DNA of 21,471 nt from Nostoc sp. (GTDB lineage: Bacteria; Cyanobacteriota; Cyanobacteriia; Cyanobacteriales; Nostocaceae), in assembly GCF_036916575.1 (NCBI RefSeq), contig NZ_JBALGC010000105.1, positions 1 to 21,471 on the forward strand, given 5' to 3'. The notes beneath the pieces are model-generated. The model worked only from the letters and a program-made list of their open reading frames with translations. It had not been told where the DNA came from and did no database searches. The stretch's first letter is position 1, and the number at the start of each line of letters is the position of its first letter. Shown here piece after piece: positions 1 to 20,620 of this stretch. Both the position numbers and the translations under genes were made by a program.

Positions 1-1400
1 CACCAAGCGTTTGTCTCCTGGTTGATACTCTTGAGCAATGACCGCACTTTCCTGAACTTGTGGGTGTTGAGTGAGTACAGCTTCGATTTCTCCTAGTTCA
101 ATGCGGAAACCTCGCACTTTGACTTGATGGTCGATGCGACCTAGAAACTCGACATTGCCGTCCGGTAAGTACCGAGCTAAGTCACCTGTTTTGTAAAGGC
201 GTGTTCCTGGTTCTTGAGAAAAAGGATCTGGAATAAAGACCTTAGCAGTTTGTTTTGGATTGTACAAATAGCCGCGACCATTACCGATACCTCCAACATA
301 TAATTCACCAACAACTCCAATTGGTATGGGTTGTAGCTGGGTATCAAGAACATATAAGCGCATATTTTGTACCGGACGACCAATCGGTGTAATAAACACA
401 TGTGCTGTAGGAGGTTGGTAGATCAGGTAGTGCGCTACATCGTCGGAACACTCAGTCGGACCATAGGCATTTAAGATGGGGATAGCTGGGTAATAGTCTA
501 ACCACCGACGAGATAAATTAGGCGGTAACACCTCACCAGTAAGTATCAATAAACGTAACTTGGGTAAGTTAGGTTGCTCTGGACGACTCACCTCTATCTC
601 TTCGAGCATCATCCGCAACAGTGATGGTACAATCTCAAGAAAGGATATTTCTTGGCACCTTATTTCTTTAAGAAGTTGTGCAGGGTCGCGAGCGACTTCA
701 TCGTTGAAAATGCAAACGCGGGCACCAATAAGTAGTGCAGCTAAAAATTGCCACACTGAGATATCAAAACTTTGATTGGCATTTTGCGCTACAGTATCGG
801 CATCTATTAACTTTAAATCCAAAATTTTTGCGTACAGATGATTTAACATCCCCCTATGTTCAATAGCCACCCCTTTTGGCATACCTGTCGAGCCAGAAGT
901 GTAGATTACATAAGCAAGATTTCTTGGGGTAACGGATACAGAAAGGTTTTCCTCAGACCGCTCTTGCTGCAATAACTCTTCGATGAGCAAGATCCGCACT
1001 TGTTGTTCTGAAGGTATTTTTTCCAGTGCTTGTGATAAAATAGGCGCAAACTTGCTGGTAGCCAGAACCAAGGAGGTTTTGCTTTGTGATAACACTTGGC
1101 GCAAACGTGGGGCTGAATGATATAAATCAAGTGGGAGGTAGGCACCACCAGCTTTAAATACTGCCATCATTGCGGTTAAGAAGTCGATGCTACGCTCGGC
1201 AAGCAAAGCGACAATAGTATCTGGTTTAACTCCTTGCTCCACCAAAAGCTTAGCTAGACGGTTGGCTCGACGGTTTAACTTCTCGTAAGTTAACTGTTGC
1301 TTTTCAAATGCTACCGCTACTGCATCGGGTGTTCTTTCTACCTGCTTCTCAAATAACTGATGGATACATTTGTTTTCGGGGTATATATTAATAGTGTCAT
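1..1400 (-). other. Domain: NRPS adenylation domain, truncated after core A8 by the window edge
   Basis: Motifs LTYEKLNRRANRLA, LAYVIYTSGSTGMPKG (874-921), FDISVWQ, NAYGPTE, GELYVGG, YKTGDLARYLPDGNVEFLGRIDHQVKVRGFRIELGEIE (last part 82-141). A9, A10 and the PCP are not in the window. Confidence 0.9.
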
Positions 1401-7400: not shown

Positions 7401-10400
7401 ATGCCGTTTGCAATTGCTGTCGTGATTCAACGATCACACTCAATCGATGCTCAAAATGCATTCGTCCAGTATTGGCTGTGAAGCAAACATTTGCTAAAGA
7501 CTCTTGAAGATTTTGTTCTAGATGAGTTTGATATTTTTCTACTAACTCCTGCAAAGCCGATTCATTTTTTGCCGAGAGAGTCAATAAATGTTTGGGGCGT
7601 TCGCGTAGCGATTCCTGTAGAGAATCCCTTTCTGTAATAGAAAGGAAAGGATTGGAAATAGGTGCTTCTTGCAAAATTATATGAGCATTAGTGCCGCCAA
7701 AGCCGAATGAAGATACACCAGCAAGACGTTGCTCTTTATCATGTAACCACGGCTGAAATTCTGTAGCGATCGACAATGAAGTGCTTTCAAGAGAAATATG
7801 AGGATTTATCTGTTTTAAATGTAGATGAGGAAACTTCTCTTTATGAAGTAAAGATAGCACTACTTTAATTAAACCAGCAATACCGGCAGCAGCCTCTAAA
7901 TGACCTATATTGGTTTTAACGGAGCCAATCGTGCATAATTGTCGATGCGAACATTCCTGAGTAAACACTTCTTTAAGAGAATTCAGTTCTATGGTGTCTC
8001 CTAAAAAAGTGCCAGTACCATGAGTTTCTACATAACTGATTTGTGCTGATGTTACACCAGCATTGGCTAAAGCTTGACGAATGACCGCTTGTTGAGCAGC
8101 ACCGTTAGGAGCTGTAAGTCCATTACTGCGACCATCTTGATTGACTGCCGAACCTTTAATGATCGCCAGAATTTTATCTCCATCTCTAAGCGCGTCAGAC
8201 AGACGTTTGAGAACCACTACACCACAACCTTCTCCACGAACGTAACCATCCGCATTCGTATCGAAGGTTTTACAGCGACCGTCAGCAGCCATCATTCCTG
8301 CTTGATCGAAAGAGATAGTCAGTTGGGGAGTGAGAATGAGATTGACTCCTCCAGCTAATGCTAGCTCGCATTCTCCTTGGCGCAAGCTTTGAGAAGCCTG
8401 ATGAACTGCCACTAGAGATGAAGAGCAGGCTGTATCTACTGCCCAGCTTGGACCCCGCAAATCTAGAAGATAAGATAGGCGATTAGCGGCAATACTAAAA
8501 GCATTACCAGTTCCAAAATAGGCATCCAATCTAGTCTTCAAGTCGAACTGTAATTGAGAATAATCAAAGTTGCTGATGCCAAAGAAAACCCCAGTCTGAC
8601 TTCCTGCTAACTTATCTGGTGCCTTCCCAGCGTGTTCTAGAGCTTCCCAGCTTACTTCTAGTAGCAGACGCTGTTGGGGATCCATACTTTCTGCTTCACG
8701 CGGGGATATTCCAAAAAACTGCGGGTCGAACTGATCCACTTGCTCCAAAAAACCACCATAGCAAGCATAGTTGTCCCAACGCGATGCGGGTACCTCGGCG
8801 ATCGCATCGACTCCGTTGCGTAATAGCTGCCAGAAAGCATCTGGATTGTTGGCTTTTGGGAAACGACAACCCATTCCAACGATCGCGATCTCTTCAGTTT
8901 CTTTCCTGCTTTCAGTTTTAATTTGTTGGGGAGCAAAACCTTCAGAAGCAGAAGTTTCATCTGCTAGATGTCGAGCCAAGCCTTCAAGGGTAGGATAATC
9001 GTATAGTAAGGTGGGAGAAAATTCGCGTCCAAGCCATTCTTGTAGTTCGCCCGAAATTCTTACTGCTGCCAGAGAATTTAAACCGTATTGAGCTAGAGGT
9101 TGGCGAATATCTATCTCCACAGGTGATACTTGCAGATATTCGCCAATTTTTGCCAGTAACCAAGCTTCAATCGCCTCTACACTTTTAGATTTTGGTAGAT
9201 CGTTGAGTCCTGGTAGGCGATCATTTGTACTCTCTGAAGAGTTGGCTGACAAATTATCCGTTTGCAGTTTTTGCCACAGGGATTCTATTTCTGATTCCAG
9301 ATGCCGAAAATGGTTTTTGTATTGGGGATTTACACTCCAATCTGCCAATACATCCAAACTGCCAGCCAGAAAACCTTCTCGACAAGCCCTACGCCGCACT
9401 TTCCCAGAAGAAGTTTTTGGAAGCGTTCCAGTTTTGAGGAGCAAAATCGCGTAAGCTTGTAAATCGTGCTCTTCTGCCACTGCTTTGCGAATTGCCGCGA
9501 TCACATCATTGCCATTTAACTTCCGCAGGTGAGTTCGTTCTACCTCTTGGACGATCACCAATTGTTCTACACCAGCAATTTCGACAGAAAAAACCGCTCC
9601 ACAACTAGGACGCAGTGCTGGGTGGCTTTGTTCTACTGTTAGTTCGATATCTTGAGGATAATGATTGCGACCCAAGATAATAATCAAATCTTTCAACCGA
9701 CCCGTAACAAATAGCTCGCCATCCTGCAAAAACCCTAAATCTCCGGTGCGTAGATACGGTTCTTCATCCCTGTCAAGATAAGCATGAAAAGTATCTTTTG
9801 TCTGCGATGGTTGATTCCAGTAGCCACTAGCCACACTCGGACTAAATACCCAAATCTCTCCCACTTGTCCATCTGTAAGCCGAGTTAAAGATTCGGGTTC
9901 AACAATTGCGATTTTTGTATCCGACCAACTCCGACCACAGCCGACAATTTTTTGAATATTCGAGCGAGCGTCAGTCGCAACTATTGCTTTGTTTTTTTCG
10001 AGAGCAGTTCCCTCAATTTGGCAAATTACTGGAGGTTGCGTTTTCAAGCCTCCAGAGATAAATAAAGTTGTCTCAGCCATCCCATAGCAGGGATAAAATG
10101 CTTCGTGGCGAAAGCCGCAATCGGCGAAAGTGCTAGTAAAACGCTCTAGTGTGTCGGCTCGGATTGGTTCGGCTCCGCTAAAAGCCACTTCCCAACTACT
10201 TAGATCGAGTTGATCGCGCTGTTCGGAAGTAATTTGGCGAACGCAAAGCTCGTAAGCAGAATTAGGACCTCCACTAGTAGTTGCCTTATAGCGTGAAATT
10301 GCCTGTAGCCAGCGAATTGGTTTTTGCAGAAATGCTACAGGCGACATGAGAAAACACGGTATTCCCAAATATAGGGGCTGTAACACATTGCCAACTAGTC

Positions 10401-11049
10401 CCATATCGTGGAATAAAGGCAACCAACCGGTAAAAATAGTATTGTGCGTATGTCCAAATGCTTTTTGAATTATTTGCTCGTTGTGCAAGAGATTGCCGTG
10501 AGTGACCATTACTCCTTTCGGCATTCCGGTAGAACCTGAAGTGTACTGGAGAAAAGCGAGAGTGTCGCTGCTCACAGTTGGATCTTGCCAGTCTGATGCA
10601 CAGTCGCTGCTAATCTTATCGATAGCTAGCCAGTGTATAGCAGATAATTTTAGATTCTGAACCAATTGACTTTCCATGCTAGTCAATTCAGATGTTGTAG
10701 TAAGCGCCATCGATGCTTGGGCATCCGATACAATCGCTTGCAGTCTGGATATTTTTTGATTGCGTCGAGGCGGATAGGCGGGAACGGCGACACACCCAGC
10801 GTATAAACAGCCAAAGAAAGCAGTAATAAAATCTAGACCTGGTGGAAACAGCAACAAGACTCGTGAACCAGGAACTTTAACTCGCTCTTGAAGTCGAACG
10901 GCGATCACTCGTGCTTTTCGCTCCAATTCTTGATAAGTAAGACTTACGCTTTCTGTTTCTCCGTTTATTAAAAAGGTATAGGCAATTTGTTCCGACTGAT
11001 GTATTGCTCGGTATTGCAAAATATCTAAAAAGGTTGAAAAATTATCCAT
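1..11049 (-). CDS. Hybrid PKS/NRPS lipopeptide-initiation megasynthase, 3' end beyond window (FAAL-ACP-KS-AT-ACP-aminotransferase-luciferase-like monooxygenase-C-A...)
   Basis: The minus-strand frame is open for all 3,683 codons from the ATG (complement of 11047-11049) to position 1. It is absent from the ORF track only because no stop lies in the window. Hand translation starts MDNFSTFLDILQYRAIHQSEQIAYTFL and ends ...QEYQPGDKRLV at position 1. Catalytic motifs of nine domains occur in colinear order (see domain entries). Every ORF-track ORF inside 1-11049 is in another frame or antisense. Confidence 0.93.
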   Translation of the reverse strand, partial: MDNFSTFLDILQYRAIHQSEQIAYTFLINGETESVSLTYQELERKARVIAVRLQERVKVPGSRVLLLFPPGLDFITAFFGCLYAGCVAVPAYPPRRNQKISRLQAIVSDAQASMALTTTSELTSMESQLVQNLKLSAIHWLAIDKISSDCASDWQDPTVSSDTLAFLQYTSGSTGMPKGVMVTHGNLLHNEQIIQKAFGHTHNTIFTGWLPLFHDMGLVGNVLQPLYLGIPCFLMSPVAFLQKPIRWLQAISRYKATTSGGPNSAYELCVRQITSEQRDQLDLSSWEVAFSGAEPIRADTLERFTSTFADCGFRHEAFYPCYGMAETTLFISGGLKTQPPVICQIEGTALEKNKAIVATDARSNIQKIVGCGRSWSDTKIAIVEPESLTRLTDGQVGEIWVFSPSVASGYWNQPSQTKDTFHAYLDRDEEPYLRTGDLGFLQDGELFVTGRLKDLIIILGRNHYPQDIELTVEQSHPALRPSCGAVFSVEIAGVEQLVIVQEVERTHLRKLNGNDVIAAIRKAVAEEHDLQAYAILLLKTGTLPKTSSGKVRRRACREGFLAGSLDVLADWSVNPQYKNHFRHLESEIESLWQKLQTDNLSANSSESTNDRLPGLNDLPKSKSVEAIEAWLLAKIGEYLQVSPVEIDIRQPLAQYGLNSLAAVRISGELQEWLGREFSPTLLYDYPTLEGLARHLADETSASEGFAPQQIKTESRKETEEIAIVGMGCRFPKANNPDAFWQLLRNGVDAIAEVPASRWDNYACYGGFLEQVDQFDPQFFGISPREAESMDPQQRLLLEVSWEALEHAGKAPDKLAGSQTGVFFGISNFDYSQLQFDLKTRLDAYFGTGNAFSIAANRLSYLLDLRGPSWAVDTACSSSLVAVHQASQSLRQGECELALAGGVNLILTPQLTISFDQAGMMAADGRCKTFDTNADGYVRGEGCGVVVLKRLSDALRDGDKILAIIKGSAVNQDGRSNGLTAPNGAAQQAVIRQALANAGVTSAQISYVETHGTGTFLGDTIELNSLKEVFTQECSHRQLCTIGSVKTNIGHLEAAAGIAGLIKVVLSLLHKEKFPHLHLKQINPHISLESTSLSIATEFQPWLHDKEQRLAGVSSFGFGGTNAHIILQEAPISNPFLSITERDSLQESLRERPKHLLTLSAKNESALQELVEKYQTHLEQNLQESLANVCFTANTGRMHFEHRLSVIVESRQQLQTALNAFILGKENSEVSSNRSLGQKSPKIAFLFSGQGSQYLGMGRQLYQTQPTFRNCLNHCQEILSSYLEKPLLSILYPESESDSLLNETIYTQPALFALEYALFELWKSWGIIPDVVMGHSVGEYVAACVAGVFSLEDGLKLISERAKLMQTLPPQGKMLVVFADEAQVATAIQPYTSEVAIAAINAPKNITISGRIPAIASIADALEARGIETRSLKVSHAFHSPLIDDILNAFELQTSQIQFRAPSIPLISNLTGQMMYSEFIPDAKYWRQHTRQTVQFMAGIKTLFTQGYELFLEISPKPILSSLGKRCQQEERAVWLPSLAPQKEDWRVMLESLSALYISGVKIDWLGFDRDYSRRILSLPTYSFQRKRYWIQDQSTISNQKPMKTNAIATNGLNPALTTFTKTNQKETILTTLRTLVVNLFKIEPSEMNINVPFLEMGADSIILIDAVNRIEATYGIKITIRQLFEELTTLDALANYLNEQIVPEDFVLNETETEVLSRSQISQPSERATVEQQMGSNKAMEAIIQQQLQLMSQQLEVMRGNGLSTVPNFSTHNGHSKPAVETLKPAPPKPMAQETFSPLPPWKVSEIRHQGLNPQQQRHLEDLIIRYTQRTQTSKQLTQTYRPILADNRASAGFRFSTKEMLYPIVGERSQGSRIWDVDGNEYLDLTMGFGANLFGHQPDFAITALKKQVDRGIQIGPQTRLAFEVAQLICQLTGMERITFCNSGTEAVMTALRLARTVTGRQKIALFTGSYHGHFDGTLAMAQTSNESLNDNLNVVPIAPGITSNTVVDVLVLDYGNPHSLEILETHAHELAAVLVEPVQSRRPDFQPREFLHQLRQLTREKGIALIFDEMITGFRIHPGGAQAWFGIDADIATYGKIVGGGMPIGVVAGKAIYMNSLDGGMWNYEDASYPQAETTFFAGTFCKHPLALATASAVLREIKMRGSTLQENLNQRTAKLAAMLNAYFEGENLPIRIVYFGSLFRFAFSSNMDLLFYHLLEKGIYIWEGRNCFLSTAHTDADIQYIIQAVKDSISQMQAGDFLPKSSLSLNESSSNSTNSFLAESFTPEAATLQQMTTMPSTSITEITNATQVEPGFWGRRTHKPNINLSQNTVRRAKRDTSKGISFSLYYFGNYESEFDPNKYNLLFEGAKFADEQGFTALWIPERHFHPFGGFSPNPSVIGAALARETKHIQIRAGSVVLPIHHPIRVAEEWSIVDNLSKGRVGISFASGWHANDFVFAPESYGKHRELMFQEIETVQKLWRGESLQVRDGAGSDINVKLFPMPMQPDVPIWITIVNNPDTYIKAGEIGAGVLTNLMGQTIEDLAHNISLYRESLSKHGYDPELGNVTVLLHTFVGENVDTVREKARQPFYNYLQSTIGIFQNLVKSQGLKIDVEKISQEDTNYILSKAYERYVQTSALIGTPSLCLPIINKLIEIGVDEIACFVDFGVDSDSVLEGLSHLNLLKKHYKKQWQIPLIKVQEQSSNLVQTKDEVLNLDKTPKSVQLNSKVLENFQNFNYLQDHYNKVENSLQKKILSSLTTSSTKEINSGVEGIVPLTKAQKQLWILDQMGDDGTLAYKISLSLQLKGLLNLGAMSRAVQQVVDRHEALRTKIDSQGNFQQILPSLKIDISLIDLSDASDRDFQVTQWFEQENLKPFDLATPPMFRAQILKLEEELHLLVLIAHHIITDGWSMSIIVQEIAQLYSTECQGVVCQISSPQQFREYVSWCEQQLQTEKMAVHESYWLAKFTGSIPVLDLPTDRFRPPIKTYRGNRQTIQLDIDLCRQLKQLSTQNGCTLFMTFLTVYTVLLSRLTNQDEIVVGILYGGRSILGSEGLIGYCSNLLLLRNPVVSNLAFLKHVKKIRDVLLDAYEHQDYPFISLYENLKTNNKISLSSIVSTTFNMERPVAIPKMFELETDLFVQPISFTDYDINLNITQINDNFVLDFIYNTDLFDAATINRWLRHFQNLCKAIVENPSQEVSELPLLSEAERHQLLVQWNDTINIYPENKCIHQLFEKQVERTPDAVAVAFEKQQLTYEKLNRRANRLAKLLVEQGVKPDTIVALLAERSIDFLTAMMAVFKAGGAYLPLDLYHSAPRLRQVLSQSKTSLVLATSKFAPILSQALEKIPSEQQVRILLIEELLQQERSEENLSVSVTPRNLAYVIYTSGSTGMPKGVAIEHRGMLNHLYAKILDLKLIDADTVAQNANQSFDISVWQFLAALLIGARVCIFNDEVARDPAQLLKEIRCQEISFLEIVPSLLRMMLEEIEVSRPEQPNLPKLRLLILTGEVLPPNLSRRWLDYYPAIPILNAYGPTECSDDVAHYLIYQPPTAHVFITPIGRPVQNMRLYVLDTQLQPIPIGVVGELYVGGIGNGRGYLYNPKQTAKVFIPDPFSQEPGTRLYKTGDLARYLPDGNVEFLGRIDHQVKVRGFRIELGEIEAVLTQHPQVQESAVIAQEYQPGDKRLV
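1440..2740 (-). other. Domain: NRPS condensation domain (boundaries approximate)
   Basis: VPLTKAQKQLW near the start. His motif AHHIITDGWS with HHxxxDG at 2323-2343. Confidence 0.88.
2990..4030 (-). other. Domain: luciferase-like (flavin-dependent) monooxygenase embedded in the assembly line (boundaries approximate)
   Basis: Motifs ISFSLYYFGNYESEFDPNKYNLL, GFTALWIPERHFHPFGGFSPNPSV, GRVGISFASGWHANDF and LIGTPSLCLPIINKLIEIGVDEIACFVDFG. This pattern fits the natural-product luciferase-like monooxygenase domain class, as in the MOX domain of MtaG/MelG. Confidence 0.8.
4290..5630 (-). other. Domain: PLP-dependent class-III aminotransferase (AMT, glutamate-1-semialdehyde aminomutase-like; boundaries approximate)
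   Basis: Motifs LNPQQQRHLEDLIIRYTQRTQTSKQ, LADNRASAGFRF, FCNSGTEAVMTALRLAR (about 5181-5231) and ATYGKIVGGGMPIG (candidate PLP Lys codon 4756-4758). The position after the KS-AT-ACP unit matches the AMT of MycA/ItuA-type synthetases. Confidence 0.85.
5960..6180 (-). other. Domain: acyl carrier protein 2 (boundaries approximate)
   Basis: Motif VPFLEMGADSIIL, with the Ser codon at 6070-6072. Confidence 0.85.
6400..7340 (-). other. Domain: acyltransferase, malonyl-type (boundaries approximate)
   Basis: Motifs IAFLFSGQGSQY, MGHSVGEYVAAC (Ser codon 7045-7047) and VSHAFHSPL. The HAFH motif is the established marker of malonyl-CoA specificity. Confidence 0.88.
7660..8900 (-). other. Domain: ketosynthase (boundaries approximate)
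   Basis: Motifs EEIAIVGMGCRFP, VDTACSSSLVAVH (active-site Cys codon 8425-8427), YVETHGTGT, IGHLEAAAG and GFGGTNAHIILQEA. Confidence 0.93.
8990..9200 (-). other. Domain: acyl carrier protein 1 (boundaries approximate)
   Basis: Motif LAQYGLNSLAAV, with the phosphopantetheine-attachment Ser codon at 9073-9075. Confidence 0.85.
9340..11049 (-). other. Domain: fatty acyl-AMP ligase (FAAL)-type adenylating loading domain (boundaries approximate)
   Basis: The N-terminus MDNFSTFLDILQYRAIHQSEQIAYTF is typical of FAALs. The adenylate-forming core LQYTSGSTGMPKGVMVTH lies at about 10503-10556. The C-terminal motif TSSGKVRRRACRE lies at about 9381-9420. A carrier domain follows directly. Confidence 0.85.
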
Positions 11050-11249
11050 TTTATTCTCACTTTTACAAAGAATGATTTTGTCAATTAATTATATCTTTTA
11101 AAAAAAGTCTGGTACTACGCAAATTAAAATTAAATCCTGCTCTAATAAGGTTAGTAATACATGTATATTATCTACTCATTCACTTATAATTGCAGAGATA
11201 AACTCATCTTTAGCGGTTATCAGTTGGATGCAGTACAGTAACCACAATA

Positions 11250-12230
11250 TTTAAACCAACCAAAAATGTTACTTAAATTGATAGTTTATAAAGCATTTGT
11301 AATCGCTTTACCACGTATCAGGATAAGTTGTTGTTTCTTTTGAACGTAAAAATTCTTGAACTTGTGACCCAAAATTCTCGCGCTTACAAAAAGTCTGGGG
11401 AATATTAATAAATAAATTAAATTATCCCAAATATATTCAATCGTTTCTCTAATTCCTGACACCTTATGAGATCTAAAATTATCGATGACTACACACGCTC
11501 CTTCCCATAAATTCGGAACTAATACTTGATAAATATAAATAGAAAATGCATTTTTATCATTTCCACCCTTAAAACTCATCGCCCCAACAATCCCATGTAA
11601 AGTGATCGCCCCAATGATGGTTACATTTTTACCATGTTTGTTGGGACGAGAGCCGTGCGTTCTTTTTCTTCTTAGTGCTTTAGCATAAAGTCTAGTCATA
11701 GCTATATTTACCCCCGAATCATCAACAAAAACTAAATTATTCAGGTCAAATGTACGGATAATTTCCCAAAACTCTTGTCTCAATTTTTTAACTGTATCCG
11801 TGTCTTGCTCCGCTGCGTGTCAAGTTTTTTTTCGGGTCAATTTGAGCTTTTATAACGTTTTACTCATTCCTGAGCTACTAATTTTTCTCTGAGGAAAGTA
11901 ACTCCATTTTTACACATAATTCTTTTAAGGTTGCATCGTTATTCTCTTCTATCAATTTTTGTAAAATTGGATAATGTTCTTCTTTTATTTGGGGTGGGTT
12001 ACTACTCTTATGTGGTAATGGTTCTATACTTTCTATTTCTAAATAGCGACCTAGTAAAGTTTGTATAAAACTGAGACTTACATGAAAGCGTTTTGCCAGC
12101 TTTCGCTTACGAGCCTTCTCAATTCCGAAAGGCATCAACAATTTTTTGACGCAGAGCTTGGTCGTCAGCCTTCATAAAAATCTGATTAATATACTCTGGT
12201 CAAATTTTAACCAGAGCGTGTTGGTTTCAA
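11250..12230 (-). mobile_element. IS630/Tc1-mariner-family insertion sequence relic (ends approximate)
   Basis: Contains the decayed transposase listed in the next entry. Candidate imperfect terminal inverted repeats are TTTAAACCAACC (11250-11261) and TGTTGGTTTCAA (12219-12230), matching 10/12 as reverse complements. The boundaries are weakly supported. Confidence 0.55.
11286..12175 (-). pseudogene. IS630-family DDE transposase, multiply frameshifted and stop-interrupted
   Basis: ATG at the complement of 12173-12175 gives MKADDQALRQKIVDAFRN. The frame then shifts to the HTH part ...KLAKRFHVSLSFIQTLLGRYLEIESIEPLPHKSSNPP...NNDATLKELC (ORF 11878-12141). The linker has in-frame stops (SKTL*KLKLTRKKT*HAAEQ). 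The DDE core follows: LVFVDDSGVN...GKNVTIIGAITL...VVIDNFRSHK (ORF 11286-11783). The C-terminus is scrambled. Confidence 0.85.
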
Positions 12231-13573: not shown

Positions 13574-13615
13574 CAACTTTGGTTAAACAAGTAGAAAAGG
13601 ACTTTGGAGACTGCC

Positions 13616-13942
13616 ATGAACGAGCTAGTACAAAGATTATCACAAGGGGATCATCCTGTTGAGGCAAGCTTAAAACCTGAAAAAACGGTTACAGCCTTCA
13701 AAGAGAGTATTGACCGTGGATATGTTCACATTAAATTTACAAATACTAAGGGAGGCACTGATCTCGGTGTCAGACTTGATCAAGAAGCTTCCAATTTGAA
13801 CGAGGCCGACTTCGACCATCAAGCGGGAAAGGTTCACCTGGTTGGTAACTTGACGCTTAATTACGAGAAAGTTCGATGTATCGCAGATATTGACCTAGAA
13901 ACACTTGAAGGCAAAGGACATCTTGAGTCAGTAGAAGAGTGA
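13616..13942 (+). CDS. Hypothetical protein (108 aa from ATG 13616; track uses TTG 13604), function unknown
   Basis: GGAG at 13606-13609 lies 6 nt before ATG 13616. Sequence is acidic and looks beta-strand-rich (…GYVHIKFTNTKGGTDLGVRLDQE…GKVHLVGNLTLNYEKVRCIADIDLETLEGKGHLE). I recognise no family. Confidence 0.6.
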   Translation: MNELVQRLSQGDHPVEASLKPEKTVTAFKESIDRGYVHIKFTNTKGGTDLGVRLDQEASNLNEADFDHQAGKVHLVGNLTLNYEKVRCIADIDLETLEGKGHLESVEE

Positions 13943-15055: not shown

Positions 15056-15616
15056 TCAAGAGGTATTATGCGCTTTCCAAGGTGTTGATTCCGAGAGCAT
15101 AAACTCGATTAAATGGTGCCAGTTATCAAATAACAAGTAGGTGGTTAGAGTACGGATGTCGTTGAAGAAAACTTTTCTGGTTCCTCGGCGTTTTCGGATT
15201 TACTGATAGGACTGGTCTAGCAACTGCAACACAGTATGAAAGAGAAATGCCAACAAGTTGAACGTAACTAGGATGCTGGAAAGATGTTTTTGACCATGAC
15301 CAAAATTATGTTCTAAGTGATAGCCCTTGGTTTTGAGTACGTTGTTATTCTAGTTCTTCACTTTCCACCGAGCACGTCCAGCAGCAATAACGTCGGCGAC
15401 GTTATCGGCTTGAATCTGATGTCGAGTGATAAAGGCATTGCGATAAATTACCGAATGATCAGAACTGTTGGTGAGAGTAAGTTCACACCAGTTAACCAAC
15501 AAAGCTGGTTGGGTATCGCGTAGGGGAATTTGGTTGACGTAGCGATAGTGGTAAATCTCTTGATAACGATCATTCCATGGATGCTGTTGAGTAGTTTTGA
15601 CGAATAGCGATCTCAA
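15056..15616 (-). pseudogene. DDE (IS4-like) transposase C-terminal relic, 5'-truncated with in-frame stops
   Basis: One minus frame reads …WNDRYQEIYHYRYVNQIPLRD…NVADVIAAGRARWKVKN*NNNVLKTKGYHLEHNFGHGQKHLSSILVTFNLLAFLFHTVLQLLDQSYQ*IRKRRGTRKVFFNDIRTLTTYLLFDNWHHLIEFML…. In-frame stops lie at 15350-15352 and 15200-15202. The RWK(V/I)EN...LK block is typical of DDE_Tnp_1-type transposases. Non-coding element DNA probably continues to about 14773. Confidence 0.75.
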
Positions 15617-15649
15617 TGGAATTTATTAACTTTTAACAGGAGTAAAAAA

Positions 15650-16666
15650 ATGCAAAGTCTTATAGAAGAATCTTTAGAGTCAAAGTATATTCCGTCAATA
15701 AATGAGGGAATATTAACGACAATCGGTAATACGCCATTGCTGAAATTAGAACGCATTCTCAAAAATACTCAATTTCAACTTTTTGCAAAGATGGAAATGT
15801 TTAATCCCGGAGGTAGCATCAAAGACCGTACAGCCTTTAACATAATCAAAAGTGCTTGTGAGAAAAATCATATTCGTCCTGATACTACAGTTATCGAATC
15901 TAGCTCAGGAAATTTAGGTATCGGGCTTGCACAAGTATGTGCTTTTCTGGGTTTATATTTTATATGTGTAGTCGATCCTAAAACAACCAAACAAAATATT
16001 AAAATTATGAAAGCGTATGGGGCAGAAATTGATATTGTGAGAGAACCAGATCCAATCACAGGTGATTTTTTATTCGCACGCATTAACCGAGTGAAATCAT
16101 TGCTCAGTTCTATTTCCAATAGTTTTTGGTGTAACCAGTATGCGAACTTGGATAATCCACGCGTTCATCATCAAACAATGCACGAGATTGTAACAGCCTT
16201 TAATGGACAACTGGACTACTTATTCTGCGCTACTAGTACTTGTGGTACACTCCGTGGGTGTTCTGAATATGTAAGAAATAACAATCTTAAAACAAAAATT
16301 ATTGCTGTTGATGCTGTGGGAAGTGTCATTTTTGGTGATCAACGAAGAAAACGGCTCATACCTGGGCATGGTGCGGGGCGAGTCCCAGAGTTGTTTCAGC
16401 CCGGACTAGAGGATGCATATGTGCATATATCTGATTTAGACTGTGTTGTAGGCTGTCATCGTTTACTCCGTCACGAGGCAATATTAGCTGGAGGCTCATC
16501 AGGGGGAGTCATAGCGGCAATTGAAAAAAAGAGAGAGGAGATACCTAATAGCGCAACTTGCGTTGCCATTCTTTGCGATCGCGGTGAGCACTACCTTGAC
16601 ACAATTTATTCAGATAGTTGGATCGAAGAAAACTTTGGTAATATTTTTTATCTTTGGGATAATTAA
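15650..16666 (+). CDS. sbnA: SbnA-type PLP-dependent N-(2-amino-2-carboxyethyl)-L-glutamate synthase (first step of L-2,3-diaminopropionate synthesis)
   Basis: 338 aa. AGGAG at 15638-15642 lies 7 nt before the ATG. Blocks are colinear with S. aureus SbnA as I recall it: IGNTPLLKL, FAKMEMFNPGGSIKDR (PLP Lys), VIESSSGNLGIGLA, CVVDPKTT, WCNQYAN, IIAVDAVGSVIFGD, IPGHGAGRVPEL, LAGGSSGGVIAAIE, LCDRGEHYLDTIYSDSWIEE. Confidence 0.9.
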   Translation: MQSLIEESLESKYIPSINEGILTTIGNTPLLKLERILKNTQFQLFAKMEMFNPGGSIKDRTAFNIIKSACEKNHIRPDTTVIESSSGNLGIGLAQVCAFLGLYFICVVDPKTTKQNIKIMKAYGAEIDIVREPDPITGDFLFARINRVKSLLSSISNSFWCNQYANLDNPRVHHQTMHEIVTAFNGQLDYLFCATSTCGTLRGCSEYVRNNNLKTKIIAVDAVGSVIFGDQRRKRLIPGHGAGRVPELFQPGLEDAYVHISDLDCVVGCHRLLRHEAILAGGSSGGVIAAIEKKREEIPNSATCVAILCDRGEHYLDTIYSDSWIEENFGNIFYLWDN

Positions 16667-16691
16667 ATCTAAAAATAGGGATGATTTTAAC

Positions 16692-17726
16692 ATGACTAAC
16701 AGTGACATAATCCTCTTAAACGGTGATGAGATTACAGAGCTTTTCAAAAACCGCGAACAGGAAATAATGCAAACTGTAAAATTAGCTTATCAAATGCATA
16801 GTCGAGGATATACAACGTTACCTCATTCTAGTTTTTTGCGTTTCCCAAATAATGAAAAAGATAGAATTATTGCTTTACCAGCTTACTTGGGTGGCGAGTT
16901 TGATACAGCAGGCATGAAGTGGATTGCTTCTTTTCCAGGCAACTTAGCCTTGGGCATGGAGCGAGCATCAGCTGTTTTACTACTAAATTCGACACAAACT
17001 GGTCATCTACAAGCGATTATGGAAAGCTCTGTAATTAGCGCTAAACGCACTGCTGCTAGCGCTGCACTGGCTGCTCATTATTTGGGAGGAGAGCAATTAT
17101 TAGCCACAGTGGGTATAATTGGCTGTGGCTTAATTAATTTTGAAACCGTTCGCTTTCTCTTAGCCGCCCGCCCTGAAATAACAAATTTGTTCATTTATGA
17201 TTTAAGCTTGGAAAGAGCAGAAAAATTCAAAATTAAGTGCCAGCAATTATCTGAGCAGGTGGAAATTACAATACTTGAAAGCCTTAAGGCCATTTTTAAA
17301 AATGTTTCTGTAATTTCCTTTGCGACAACTGTAATTAAGCCACACATATTCGATATTTTGGAGTGGCATAACGATAATGGTATCATTTTGCACATTTCTT
17401 TACGAGATTTATCACCCGAAATAATGGTATTGGCTGATAACATCGTTGATGACATAGACCATGTCTGCCGCGCTCAAACATCCATCCACCTTACCGAACA
17501 ACAAATAGGAAACAGAGATTTTATTAGATGTACCATTGGTGAGATTCTCAATGGCATTGCCCCACCACGGCAAAAAAATAAAACTGCTATATTTAGCCCT
17601 TTTGGGCTTGGTATACTTGATCTTGCTTTAGGGCAGTTAGCCCATACATTAGCTCTTGAGCAAAACAAAGGAACTATGATCAAATCACTATTACCAGTCC
17701 CTTGGTTACAACAAGAAGAAAAGTAA
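16692..17726 (+). CDS. sbnB: SbnB-type NAD-dependent dehydrogenase of the ornithine cyclodeaminase/mu-crystallin family (second step of L-2,3-diaminopropionate synthesis)
   Basis: 344 aa from ATG 16692, with AGGGA at 16677-16681. The track start TTG 16521 would overlap sbnA by 146 nt. Blocks resemble SbnA's partner SbnB: DRIIALPAYLGGEFDTAGMKWIASFPGN, GMERASAVLLLN, ESSVISAKRTAASAALAA, VGIIGCGLINFETV, ISLRDL, VDDIDHVC, IFSPFGLGILDLAL. It lies 25 nt downstream of sbnA. Confidence 0.88.
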   Translation: MTNSDIILLNGDEITELFKNREQEIMQTVKLAYQMHSRGYTTLPHSSFLRFPNNEKDRIIALPAYLGGEFDTAGMKWIASFPGNLALGMERASAVLLLNSTQTGHLQAIMESSVISAKRTAASAALAAHYLGGEQLLATVGIIGCGLINFETVRFLLAARPEITNLFIYDLSLERAEKFKIKCQQLSEQVEITILESLKAIFKNVSVISFATTVIKPHIFDILEWHNDNGIILHISLRDLSPEIMVLADNIVDDIDHVCRAQTSIHLTEQQIGNRDFIRCTIGEILNGIAPPRQKNKTAIFSPFGLGILDLALGQLAHTLALEQNKGTMIKSLLPVPWLQQEEK

Positions 17727-17892
17727 TGGTACTTCACTAAAGACTGTACGTTCGCTCATTTTTGAAGGACAAGGGGAATTAATGCCTAACTGTGTAAGGT
17801 TTCAAGGTGATTGTGGAGATCCTAAAACCATTACCGTGTGATACTTAGCAGACGAATGAAAAAGAAAAAGAAATAACCAGAGAAAGACCAAT

Positions 17893-17902
17893 AATTATAA
17901 CC
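17893..17902. repeat. Target-site duplication, left copy (AATTATAACC)
   Basis: Perfect 10-bp direct repeat of 19531-19540, immediately outside IR-L of the IS4-family element. Confidence 0.85.
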
Positions 17903-19530
17903 GAATGGCACTGAGATAAGACAAAACCCTTGAATGGTAAGGGCTGGTAAAGAAATGAAATACAAGTTGTAATAAAGCTGTGGAGAGCGTTTTATAAGCA
18001 ACGTTAATGCTAAGGTAGCGATTATGTAGGCAAGCGATCGTTTAAAAAATTGTTCTGTACAAAGAAAAAGCTCCCAAGTCCTGTAAAAAAGAATTGGACG
18101 ATTGGAAGCTAATATGACTACTACTACTGTGCCAAATCGTGTACAAGTTCTCAAGACAAAATTTACTACTAGTCTAGGATTACCATTTCGAGAGCTTTTA
18201 CCAGAGTTAGAGATTCAAAGCGCGATTGACGAATTAGAAATTAAATATCGTCGGCGGAAGTTTTATCCGTTTATCACCTTGTGGGTATTTCTATCACAAG
18301 TATTAGATGTTGATAAAAGTTGTGAGAATGCAGTGTCACGAGTAACTGCATGGTTAGCAAGCGAAAGTGTAGAAATTCCGTCAACAGATACAAGCGCTTA
18401 TTGTAAAGCACGTAAAAGATTGCCAGAAAAACTATTGGAGAAACTTTTTATCTCGATAGCTGAGAAATTACAAAATAAAGTAATGCCCAAACAATTATGG
18501 TGTGGTCGCCAGATCAAAGTAATAGATGGCTCAACAGTGTCAATGGCTGATAATATTGAAAATCAAAAATCCTACCCTCAGCCTAGTAGTCAACAGCCAG
18601 GTTGTGGCTTTCCCATCGCTAAAATTGGTGTAGTATTTTGTCTAGCTACAGGCGCTGCTATTGCTTTAGCTATCGACGTTTTGAATACTCATGACATTAA
18701 ACTTGCTAGGAGATTAGCTCAATTTCTTCACAAGGGAGATGTACTTTTAGGGGATAGAGCTTTTTGTGCTTACGCTGATTTAGTTTTCATCAAAAATATG
18801 GAATGCGATGCCGTATTTCGTAAACATCAATCCCGAAAGACCTCTATGCGTCGAGGTAAAATTGTTGGAGCGTGTGACAAGTTAGTTACTTGGTATAAAC
18901 CGAAAAAATGCCCAGAAGGTTTAAGTCAATCAGATTTTGCTGCTCTACCCAAAATTTTGATTGTTCGAGAGATTTATTATTATATTTTTATTCCTGGGTT
19001 TCGGACTACTAATGTCAGTTTGATTACAACTTTATTAGATTCCGAAACTTATACCACTTTAGAAATTGTTAGGCTTTATGACTCTAGATGGGATGTTGAA
19101 GTCAATTTAAAACATTTAAAAACGACTTTGGGTATGGAGGTATTACGTGGTAAAACTCCTGAAATTGTACGAAAGGAAATTTACGCTTTTTTGTTAGCTT
19201 ATAACCTGCTGCGTACATTAATGTGGCAGGCTGGGATGACTTTCGGTGTTCCTCCACTGCGCTTATCGTTGCAGAGAACTCGTCATCACTTAGATAACTT
19301 TATTCCGGAATTATTAGCTAGTACTGACAAAAAACGCGATCGCATTTATCAAACTTTGCTCCTCATTATTGTTTACAAACCAGTTCCTGACCGCCCTGGT
19401 CGAGCTGAACCCAGAGTTAGAAAACGCCGTCCCAAAGCTTATCCATTAATGAAACAACCTAGAAATCAATTGCGCCGTCAATTACAGACTGCTTGATTTC
19501 ACTGTATCCTAGCTTATTTCAGTGCCATTC
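17903..19530 (+). mobile_element. IS4-family insertion sequence, apparently intact (1,628 bp)
   Basis: IR-L is GAATGGCACTGAGATAAG (17903-17920). IR-R is CTTATTTCAGTGCCATTC (19513-19530). They match 17/18 as reverse complements. One uninterrupted transposase ORF lies inside. Perfect 10-bp direct repeats flank the element. Confidence 0.9.
18102..19496 (+). CDS. IS4-family DDE transposase (464 aa from TTG 18102; first ATG at 18114)
   Basis: Uninterrupted ORF. Candidate DDE residues lie in VIDGSTVSMAD, LLGDRAFCAY and the IS4-family Y(2)R(3)E(6)K signature YDSRWDVEVNLKHLK. Confidence 0.92.
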   Translation: MEANMTTTTVPNRVQVLKTKFTTSLGLPFRELLPELEIQSAIDELEIKYRRRKFYPFITLWVFLSQVLDVDKSCENAVSRVTAWLASESVEIPSTDTSAYCKARKRLPEKLLEKLFISIAEKLQNKVMPKQLWCGRQIKVIDGSTVSMADNIENQKSYPQPSSQQPGCGFPIAKIGVVFCLATGAAIALAIDVLNTHDIKLARRLAQFLHKGDVLLGDRAFCAYADLVFIKNMECDAVFRKHQSRKTSMRRGKIVGACDKLVTWYKPKKCPEGLSQSDFAALPKILIVREIYYYIFIPGFRTTNVSLITTLLDSETYTTLEIVRLYDSRWDVEVNLKHLKTTLGMEVLRGKTPEIVRKEIYAFLLAYNLLRTLMWQAGMTFGVPPLRLSLQRTRHHLDNFIPELLASTDKKRDRIYQTLLLIIVYKPVPDRPGRAEPRVRKRRPKAYPLMKQPRNQLRRQLQTA

Positions 19531-19540
19531 AATTATAACC
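19531..19540. repeat. Target-site duplication, right copy (AATTATAACC)
   Basis: Perfect 10-bp direct repeat of 17893-17902, immediately outside IR-R. Confidence 0.85.
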
Positions 19541-19558
19541 AAAGGATATTCTCGAATT

Positions 19559-20620
19559 ATGAATACACTTCTCATCACACCTGAAGATATTCAGAAAGTG
19601 GTTAATCGGGTCGGAATAGATACACTAATGGACATAATGATCGCAAAGCTAACCGAGGCATTCAAGGAAGCTTCTTTGGGTATCGGTGAATTGCGACCTC
19701 GTGCTGGGTTTTGTAATCAGCAGTCACCCTCTGTCTTAGAGTGGATGCCCTATAAGCAGCATATCGATCAGTCTGTGTCGATTAAGGTTGTCGCTTACCA
19801 GCCACGCAATATATCAGTTGGTCTACCGACAATCGTTGCAAGTACAAGCCTCTATGACTCCACTACAGGTCATTTAGTAGCGTTGTCGGATGGTGTGTTT
19901 CTCACTGCTTTGCGAACGGGAGCTGCCTCAGCCATTGTTAGCAGTATTCTTGCTCATCCTAATAGTATAACTGTGGGACTAGTGGGAGCCGGGGCGCAAG
20001 CTATTACTCAGTTACACGCTCTAAGCCGAGTGTTTCCACTGCTGTCGGTACTAGTTTATGATCTTAACCGTGATACTGCTCAATCATTCTTGAGTCGTGC
20101 TGCCTTTATGAATTTGCCAGTCAAAGTCGCTCCTCTAGATGAAGTCGAACGGGAAGCCGATATTCTTTGCACTGCTACGACTGTTGCACAAGGAAAGGGT
20201 GCAGTAATTATAGGTGAATCTCTCAAGCCTCATGTTCATATCAATGCAATTGGTTCCGATCTCCCTGGAAAAACTGAGCTACCACTATCACTACTCAAAA
20301 CGAGCTTAGTGTGTCCAGATTTTCCTGAGCAAGCTAAGTTTGAAGGTGAATGCCAACAGTTGACAACGGAAGAAATCGGGCCAGATTTATTAAAACTGGT
20401 GCGACGACCTGAAGATTTTCACATTTGGAGGGAGCAGCGAACGGTTTTTGATTCAACAGGTATGGCGCTTGAGGATCATGTAGCTTTGGTAAGCTTACTG
20501 AAATTGGTACAAGAATACGGGCTAGGTCAGCTAGTTCAGCTAGAGTATTTCCCCACTGATCCACATAATCCATACGATATGATAAAAAATTCTATGCCAA
20601 TACCATTGGTGACAAGTTAA
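19559..20620 (+). CDS. Ornithine cyclodeaminase-family enzyme, RapL/FkbL-like (lysine cyclodeaminase giving L-pipecolate, or ornithine cyclodeaminase giving L-proline)
   Basis: 353 aa from ATG 19559, the first start outside the IS. The track start TTG 19493 lies inside the IS. AAGGA at 19542-19546. Blocks: LEWMPY, LPTIVASTSLYD, FLTALRTGAASA, VGLVGAGAQAITQLHALSRV, HINAIGSDLPGKTELP, EGECQQL, VFDSTGMALEDHVAL, DPHNPY. These are colinear with cyclodeaminases. GAGAQA.TQ.HALSRV and VFDSTG resemble RapL as I recall it. Confidence 0.85.
   Translation: MNTLLITPEDIQKVVNRVGIDTLMDIMIAKLTEAFKEASLGIGELRPRAGFCNQQSPSVLEWMPYKQHIDQSVSIKVVAYQPRNISVGLPTIVASTSLYDSTTGHLVALSDGVFLTALRTGAASAIVSSILAHPNSITVGLVGAGAQAITQLHALSRVFPLLSVLVYDLNRDTAQSFLSRAAFMNLPVKVAPLDEVEREADILCTATTVAQGKGAVIIGESLKPHVHINAIGSDLPGKTELPLSLLKTSLVCPDFPEQAKFEGECQQLTTEEIGPDLLKLVRRPEDFHIWREQRTVFDSTGMALEDHVALVSLLKLVQEYGLGQLVQLEYFPTDPHNPYDMIKNSMPIPLVTS

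Follow-up and report, generated by a model that had tools for sequence, protein, structure and literature searches.

The window analyzed here, which is the whole of a 21,471-nt contig from a metagenome-assembled genome (MAG) of Nostoc sp., carries the adjacent genes sbnA and sbnB, which probably form a two-gene cassette supplying L-2,3-diaminopropionate (Dap) as precursor to a hybrid polyketide synthase/nonribosomal peptide synthetase (PKS/NRPS) lipopeptide pathway. The original prediction had described two adjacent, co-oriented genes 25 nt apart, and its coordinates, orientation and spacer (16667-16691, both genes on the + strand) were exact. The cyanobacterial origin of the cassette and its NRPS setting, claimed at the same time, were both confirmed.

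The first gene had been likened to SbnA and scores 441.7 bits (E = 1.2e-132) on the SbnA model TIGR03945, above the curated equivalog cut-off of 349.95 and with a margin of ~220 bits over the competing curated hidden Markov models (HMMs), all of which stay under their own cut-offs (CBS, 223.4 bits; cysKM, 222.9; cysK, 205.7; and cysM, 177.1). Its best PDB match is the Staphylococcus aureus SbnA (5D84, 273 bits, 43.6% identity), the best non-SbnA structure reaching 181 bits. Residue K58 aligns with Lys47 of the S. aureus enzyme, which forms the Schiff base with pyridoxal 5'-phosphate (PLP), and is invariant in 14 homologues. The O-phosphoserine-binding residues, whose conservation the original prediction had singled out for checking, are kept in the window protein, where R144, Y164, and S196 align with the S. 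aureus Arg132, Tyr152, and Ser185 credited with selective O-phosphoserine binding (PMC12414870). The position of Ser185 is occupied by Gly in some cyanobacterial homologues and by Ser in the window SbnA. Translation starts at an ATG with AGGAG 8 nt ahead of it.

The second gene, likened to SbnB, scores 394.6 bits (E = 3e-118) on TIGR03944, for which the curated equivalog cut-off is 326.9, the next best model reaching 110.3 bits and the ornithine cyclodeaminase (OCD) model NF005762 only 42.7 bits (the broader PF02423 match is of 114.1 bits). The closest solved structure is the S. aureus SbnB (4M54, 141.7 bits, 30.8% identity), followed by alanine dehydrogenase with 104 bits, and the glycine-rich dinucleotide-binding motif IIGCGLI is identical in the window and S. 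aureus proteins. The start at ATG 16692 agrees with the homologues and with the gene as called independently on Logan contig L001; an upstream TTG at 16521, proposed by mechanical ORF calling, was rejected because homologue alignments begin at ATG 16692. By the competing HMM scores, gene 1 does not fall with cysteine synthases nor gene 2 with cyclodeaminases. As judged from their sequences, the first gene is an SbnA orthologue, with an ordinary cysteine synthase excluded, and the second is an SbnB orthologue, with a cyclodeaminase excluded. In all sbnA loci with listed neighboring genes, sbnA is again paired with sbnB.

Following established chemistry assigned by orthology, SbnA would use PLP to replace the phosphate of O-phospho-L-serine by the amino group of L-glutamate, and SbnB would oxidize the adduct with NAD+ to release Dap and 2-oxoglutarate. 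The free Dap would then be adenylated by the first NRPS module (code DIWEITADD) of the divergently transcribed megasynthase, probably assisted by the MbtH-like protein, a likely chaperone of the adenylation (A) domain, and would be condensed onto a 3-amino-2-hydroxy fatty acyl starter coming from the FAAL-ACP-KS-AT-ACP-aminotransferase-monooxygenase portion of the same protein. Pipecolate is suggested as a second special building block by the lysine-cyclodeaminase-like gene that lies just downstream, split off by an IS4 insertion sequence (IS).

The specificity code of the sole A domain was extracted by alignment to a GrsA-PheA reference segment, a procedure validated by its recovery of the PheA code DAWTIAAIC, and was confirmed by direct reading of the motifs FDISVWQ, LEIVPS, LILTGE, and NAYGPTECSDD. 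It contains the acidic residues E278, D330, and D331, which would suit a side chain that is short and cationic. When loci were fetched via SbnA homologues, DIWE[ILV]TADD stood by sbnAB in all of the five further cyanobacterial loci that yielded an A domain (L006, L007, L009, L011, where it appears twice, and L012), within a few kb of the cassette, and the same type of code stands by sbnAB in Desulfobacterales (L014), Pyrinomonadaceae (L020), and Chloroflexia (L089). The corresponding distance between A domain and sbnA in the window is 14 kb.

The reverse test covered 79 metagenome loci chosen solely by similarity to the window A domain, all of them with DIWE- or DIWT-xTADD-type codes, and searched their 10-kb neighborhoods, with low sensitivity given that many contigs are short and that the window's own genes would lie beyond this range. 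Seven loci had an SbnA or SbnB match of >55% identity: four of these carried the two genes together, two had SbnA alone, and one had a partial SbnB. Another four had a divergent SbnA-like match, adjoined in three cases by an SbnB-like gene. A stand-alone class-III aminotransferase, a possible maker of L-2,4-diaminobutyrate (Dab), was found in one of the 79, for an informative ratio of 11 to 1. The linkage between A-domain code and sbnAB holds in both directions, and because DIW[E/T]xTADD domains travel with SbnA/SbnB, those standing beside these genes in cyanobacteria, Acidobacteriota, Chloroflexia, and Desulfobacterales probably load Dap. A diamino-acid-type code that travels with sbnAB across phyla lends support to the earlier proposal that L-Dap is made for NRPS use. 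It also provides a rule of thumb for a code that, given its match to PvdL, would probably be read as Dab-specific by itself.

Several side observations concern the loci gathered in these searches. Divergent PLP/OCD-type pairs stand by DIWTITADD domains in L092, L116, L139, and partially in L112, with 36–39% and 26–28% identity to the window SbnA and SbnB; TIGR03945 and TIGR03944 are nonetheless the top-scoring models for the pair in L116, with scores under the cut-off in both cases (347.4 vs. 349.95 and 216.1 vs. 326.9). In four cyanobacterial loci (L007, L009, L011/L169, and L012) an NRPS comes immediately after sbnA-sbnB, and the codes of its first two A domains are DIWE[LI]TADD and the Tyr-like DASTIAGVC (DASTTAGVG in L011), a pairing of diamino acid and tyrosine reminiscent of the Dab and Tyr in the chromophore of pyoverdine. 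Actinomycete sbnAB loci show other codes, DAWQ[FCA]ATID or DALQFAT[IV]D, ~2 kb downstream of sbnB (among others L038, L041, L042, L044, L047, L048, L050, L054, L055, L057, and L062), often followed by DLPKVAEVG, and probably represent a separate Dap-loading lineage.

A number of observations weigh against Dap supply to this megasynthase. A distance of 14 kb, with IS fragments in it, separates sbnA from the A domain, and the two are on opposite strands; the identity of SbnB to the characterized enzyme is only 31%; the native promoter of sbnA is uncertain and may have been replaced, since the nearest sbnAB relative (L002) is similar to the window only up to 50 nt ahead of the gene; and promoter and terminator scans of the region gave counts at or below those expected from shuffled sequence. 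The best solved match of the pocket region is a PvdL A domain (PDB 9UP2 and 9LCO, 113 bits) with the code DIWELTADD, identical to that of the window at 8/9 positions, and this is the only characterized code match found (the code strings had no match in the literature searched). We take this fragment of PvdL to be its Dab module (module 4), because its acid-rich pocket cannot be that of a Glu or Tyr domain and its position fits an E-C-A-T fragment. PvdL incorporates L-Dab supplied by the aminotransferase PvdH, so that the code alone would predict Dab, whereas genomic linkage argues for Dap, a substrate one methylene apart. The A domain might then load Dab made elsewhere in the genome, with the Dap of SbnA/SbnB going to a later module past the end of the contig or to some other purpose. 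We regard this as unlikely, since a Dab-forming aminotransferase is absent both from the window and from the sbnAB-linked cyanobacterial loci, the code co-occurs with sbnAB whichever way the linkage is examined, and no other A domain of those loci has an acidic pocket able to take Dap.

The locus could also be a decaying, IS-riddled remnant in which sbnAB are intact but stand outside any working pathway. Pieces of an IS630-type element (DDE_3, 11286-12141) and the IS4 element between sbnB and the cyclodeaminase gene speak for this, as do the comparisons with L002 (assembly GCA_000315585.1). The cassette (15600-17708) is 91.9% identical to positions 9951-12059 of that locus, and similarity breaks off ~50 nt before sbnA starts and, on the other side, at the 3' end of sbnB, beyond which the flanks are unrelated and IS-rich in both; the PhyH and CmlA-like hydroxylase genes of L002 are absent from the window, where no remnants of them were found. 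However, the megasynthase reading frame runs leftwards from 11049 for 3683 codons without a stop, the sbnA, sbnB, MbtH, and cyclodeaminase genes are all full length, and the ratios of nonsynonymous to synonymous substitution rates (dN/dS) against the L002 cassette, 0.30 for sbnA and 0.26 for sbnB with both ORFs intact, indicate at the sequence level that sbnAB is under purifying selection. The remnant explanation thus appears improbable, a little more so than the loading of Dab. The locus is rearranged by insertion sequences with its genes intact, and the sbnAB pair appears to move or to be retained as a unit.

Far less probable than either is that the Dap serves an NRPS-independent siderophore of the staphyloferrin B type, or is methylated in free form to the neurotoxin β-N-methylamino-L-alanine (BMAA). 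The characterized SbnA/SbnB do serve such a siderophore pathway and Dap is a proposed BMAA precursor (PMC9414260), but an IucA/IucC-type synthetase and a methyltransferase are both absent from the window, and NRPS genes neighbor sbnAB in all cyanobacterial relatives. No IucA/IucC-type synthetase (SbnC/E/F) was found near sbnAB among the window ORFs, and a staphyloferrin-type role was rejected for the absence of these enzymes from the window.

The cyclodeaminase-like gene may be the counterpart of sbnAB for a second residue. It matches lysine cyclodeaminases in the PDB (5GZI, 291 bits, and 5YU0, 287 bits) much better than it does an OCD (1U7H, 127.7 bits) or SbnB. It probably provides L-pipecolate for the same pathway and would once have been co-oriented just downstream of sbnB. 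The intervening IS4 element carries imperfect inverted repeats of 48 nt (17873-17920 and 19513-19560) and extends on the right as far as the ATG of the cyclodeaminase gene. A copy of this element, 70% identical, is located upstream of sbnAB in another Nostoc locus (L005).

Features of the window are collected in the table, where each ORF of at least 100 aa is either accounted for or without family match; a Rfam scan of the window gave no RNA families. The small ORF pair has its counterpart behind the NRPS-TE gene of L002 (49% and 62% identity), and is all that this closest sbnAB relative and the window share besides the cassette. The second ORF of the pair has an unexpected Pfam match to CBF_beta, the eukaryotic Core-binding-factor beta (40.9 bits, cut-off 25).

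Features of the 21,471-nt Nostoc sp. window (domains of the megasynthase are given from its N-terminus, on the reverse strand)
Feature	Position	Strand	Remarks
Hybrid PKS/NRPS megasynthase, at least 3683 aa	1..11049	-	Runs past left contig end; Pfam and NCBIfam domain matches, core motifs
FAAL	11037-9355	-	Megasynthase
ACP	9162-8965	-	Megasynthase
KS	8895-7816	-	Megasynthase
AT	7320-6373	-	Megasynthase
ACP	about 6162-5950	-	Megasynthase
Class-III aminotransferase	5466-4282	-	Megasynthase
FMN luciferase-like monooxygenase	4017-2998	-	Megasynthase
C (condensation) domain	2739-1411	-	Megasynthase
A domain, sole one of the window, candidate for loading L-Dap	1..1353	-	Megasynthase; code DIWEITADD; truncated 34 residues past A8
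IS630-type transposase pieces, broken	11286-12141	-	DDE_3 match for 11286-11780
Small conserved ORF pair, 111 and 112 aa	13238-13573 and 13604-13942	+	
MbtH-like protein, 76 aa	14368..14598	+	PF03621, 82.2 bits
88-aa ORF directly upstream of sbnA	15350-15616	-	Without family match
sbnA, PLP-dependent N-(2-amino-2-carboxyethyl)-L-glutamate synthase, 338 aa	15650..16666	+	TIGR03945, PF00291
sbnB, NAD+-dependent dehydrogenase of OCD/mu-crystallin fold, 344 aa	16692..17726	+	TIGR03944, PF02423
IS4-family insertion element	about 17873-19560	+	Transposase 18102-19496; NF033592, 205.6 bits
Lysine-cyclodeaminase-like gene of the OCD family, 353 aa	19559..20620	+	PDB matches 5GZI, 5YU0

The megasynthase was compared with the initiation enzymes of the PuwE/MycA type, and all domains from FAAL to C-A are present and in the expected order. 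The monooxygenase scores 530.6 bits on TIGR04020 (MupA/Atu3671, cut-off 244.45), and the domain logic of PuwE is that of a builder of 3-amino-2-hydroxy fatty acyl starters (PMC4219810). A homologue search with the monooxygenase-C region gave no close orthologue, the best full-coverage match being a Microcystis protein of 53% identity. Metagenome loci L130, L132, L160, and partly L153 share the aminotransferase-monooxygenase-C-A(DIW..) architecture with the window, with domain identities of 55–71%; L132 comes nearest (71 and 67%). The shared layout points to a wider family of 3-amino-2-hydroxy-acyl lipopeptides beginning with a diamino acid. As the contig breaks off within the A domain, no name can be put to the product of the window megasynthase.

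The original prediction had also remarked that no N-methyltransferase is present in the window. None is indeed encoded, either as a domain or as a gene, although this carries little weight, as the contig ends (...GDKRLV) no more than about six residues short of the position at which related domains have a methyltransferase insert between A8 and A9, and the absence is uninformative for that reason. Inserts of ~420 aa are found after ...LVAYVV, between A8 and A10, in 9 or 10 of the 95 DIW-type domains examined; seven of them show an S-adenosylmethionine-binding-type motif, and the one in L129 matches Pfam methyltransferase families. Such domains appear in sbnAB-linked loci (L089, L117, and L129) and also in L103, L121, L137, L138, and L142, all with 55–73% G+C compared to the ~40% of the Nostocales loci, and none was found in the cyanobacterial relatives. 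They are expected to make a peptide-bound N-methyl diamino acid, which would mean that in some non-cyanobacterial loci the formation of N-methyl-Dap on an assembly line linked to sbnAB exists in nature. An embedded NRPS M domain normally methylates the α-amine, giving an isomer of BMAA.

By analogy, the window A domain might continue into an embedded methyltransferase like those of L089, L117, and L129 and yield peptide-bound N-methyl-Dap, which we consider very improbable. If it did, hydrolysis of this residue could register as BMAA or an isomer, and the disputed BMAA signal of cyanobacteria would have a concrete genetic candidate in this locus. The link to BMAA was rightly presented from the start as a hypothesis only; it is one of low probability, which the window neither supports nor excludes.

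The finding of sbnAB is correct but not new, since GenBank already names both proteins (MEH1834791.1 as SbnA and MEH1834792.1 as SbnB) and the presence of the pair in cyanobacteria and its possible relevance to BMAA have been published. According to the description given in PMC9414260, Mantas et al. (2022) looked for routes to Dap and BMAA in 130 cyanobacterial genomes and detected SbnA/SbnB alone, these being confined to a limited number of species, with a siderophore role being discussed; an earlier proposal had Dap methylated while bound to a multienzyme complex (PMC9414260). SbnA homologues of 68–87% identity are widespread in heterocystous cyanobacteria, most of the source-named ones being called SbnA, and the exact window protein is found on one other contig only, a 7-kb Logan assembly that contributes no further sequence information. 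Knowledge of SbnA/SbnB itself is unchanged by this locus, which adds a new Nostoc example to the cyanobacteria able to make L-Dap, with a specific NRPS module suggested as its consumer. Of use beyond this locus are the linkage, seen in several phyla, of a Dab-like A-domain code with genes for Dap synthesis, and the methyltransferase-bearing, sbnAB-linked versions outside cyanobacteria.

Compared with known systems, the window pair resembles the S. aureus SbnA/SbnB of the staphyloferrin B pathway in being adjacent and co-oriented, in its folds, equivalog families and key residues, and in its predicted chemistry, by which O-phosphoserine and glutamate would give N-(2-amino-2-carboxyethyl)-L-glutamate (ACEGA) and then Dap and 2-oxoglutarate. 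The consumer of the Dap differs, because the window pair lies in a PKS/NRPS locus without NRPS-independent siderophore synthetases. In this it is closer to other SbnA/SbnB homologues that act as precursor-supply pairs beside an assembly line, such as SzoB/SzoJ of sandarazol, those of the L-alanosine ala cluster, and CmnB/CmnK of capreomycin (PMC8048970; PMC8264950), the last being more distant relatives of the window pair (168 and 73.5 bits). Codes vary among these systems, from the serine-like one of the sandarazol Dap A domain (PMC8048970) to DIW[E/T]xTADD in the cyanobacterial, acidobacterial, and Chloroflexia sbnAB loci and DAWQxATID or DALQFATxD in actinomycetes. Module 4 of PvdL, from the pyoverdine pathway, differs in its substrate, Dab provided by PvdH, whereas the supply genes of the window would make Dap. 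Finally, PuwE of puwainaphycin and the iturin-family MycA share with the window megasynthase the order KS-AT-ACP-aminotransferase-monooxygenase-C-A. The FAAL and first ACP are fused onto it as in MycA and differently from PuwE (PMC4219810), and its first amino acid is a predicted diamino acid in place of valine.

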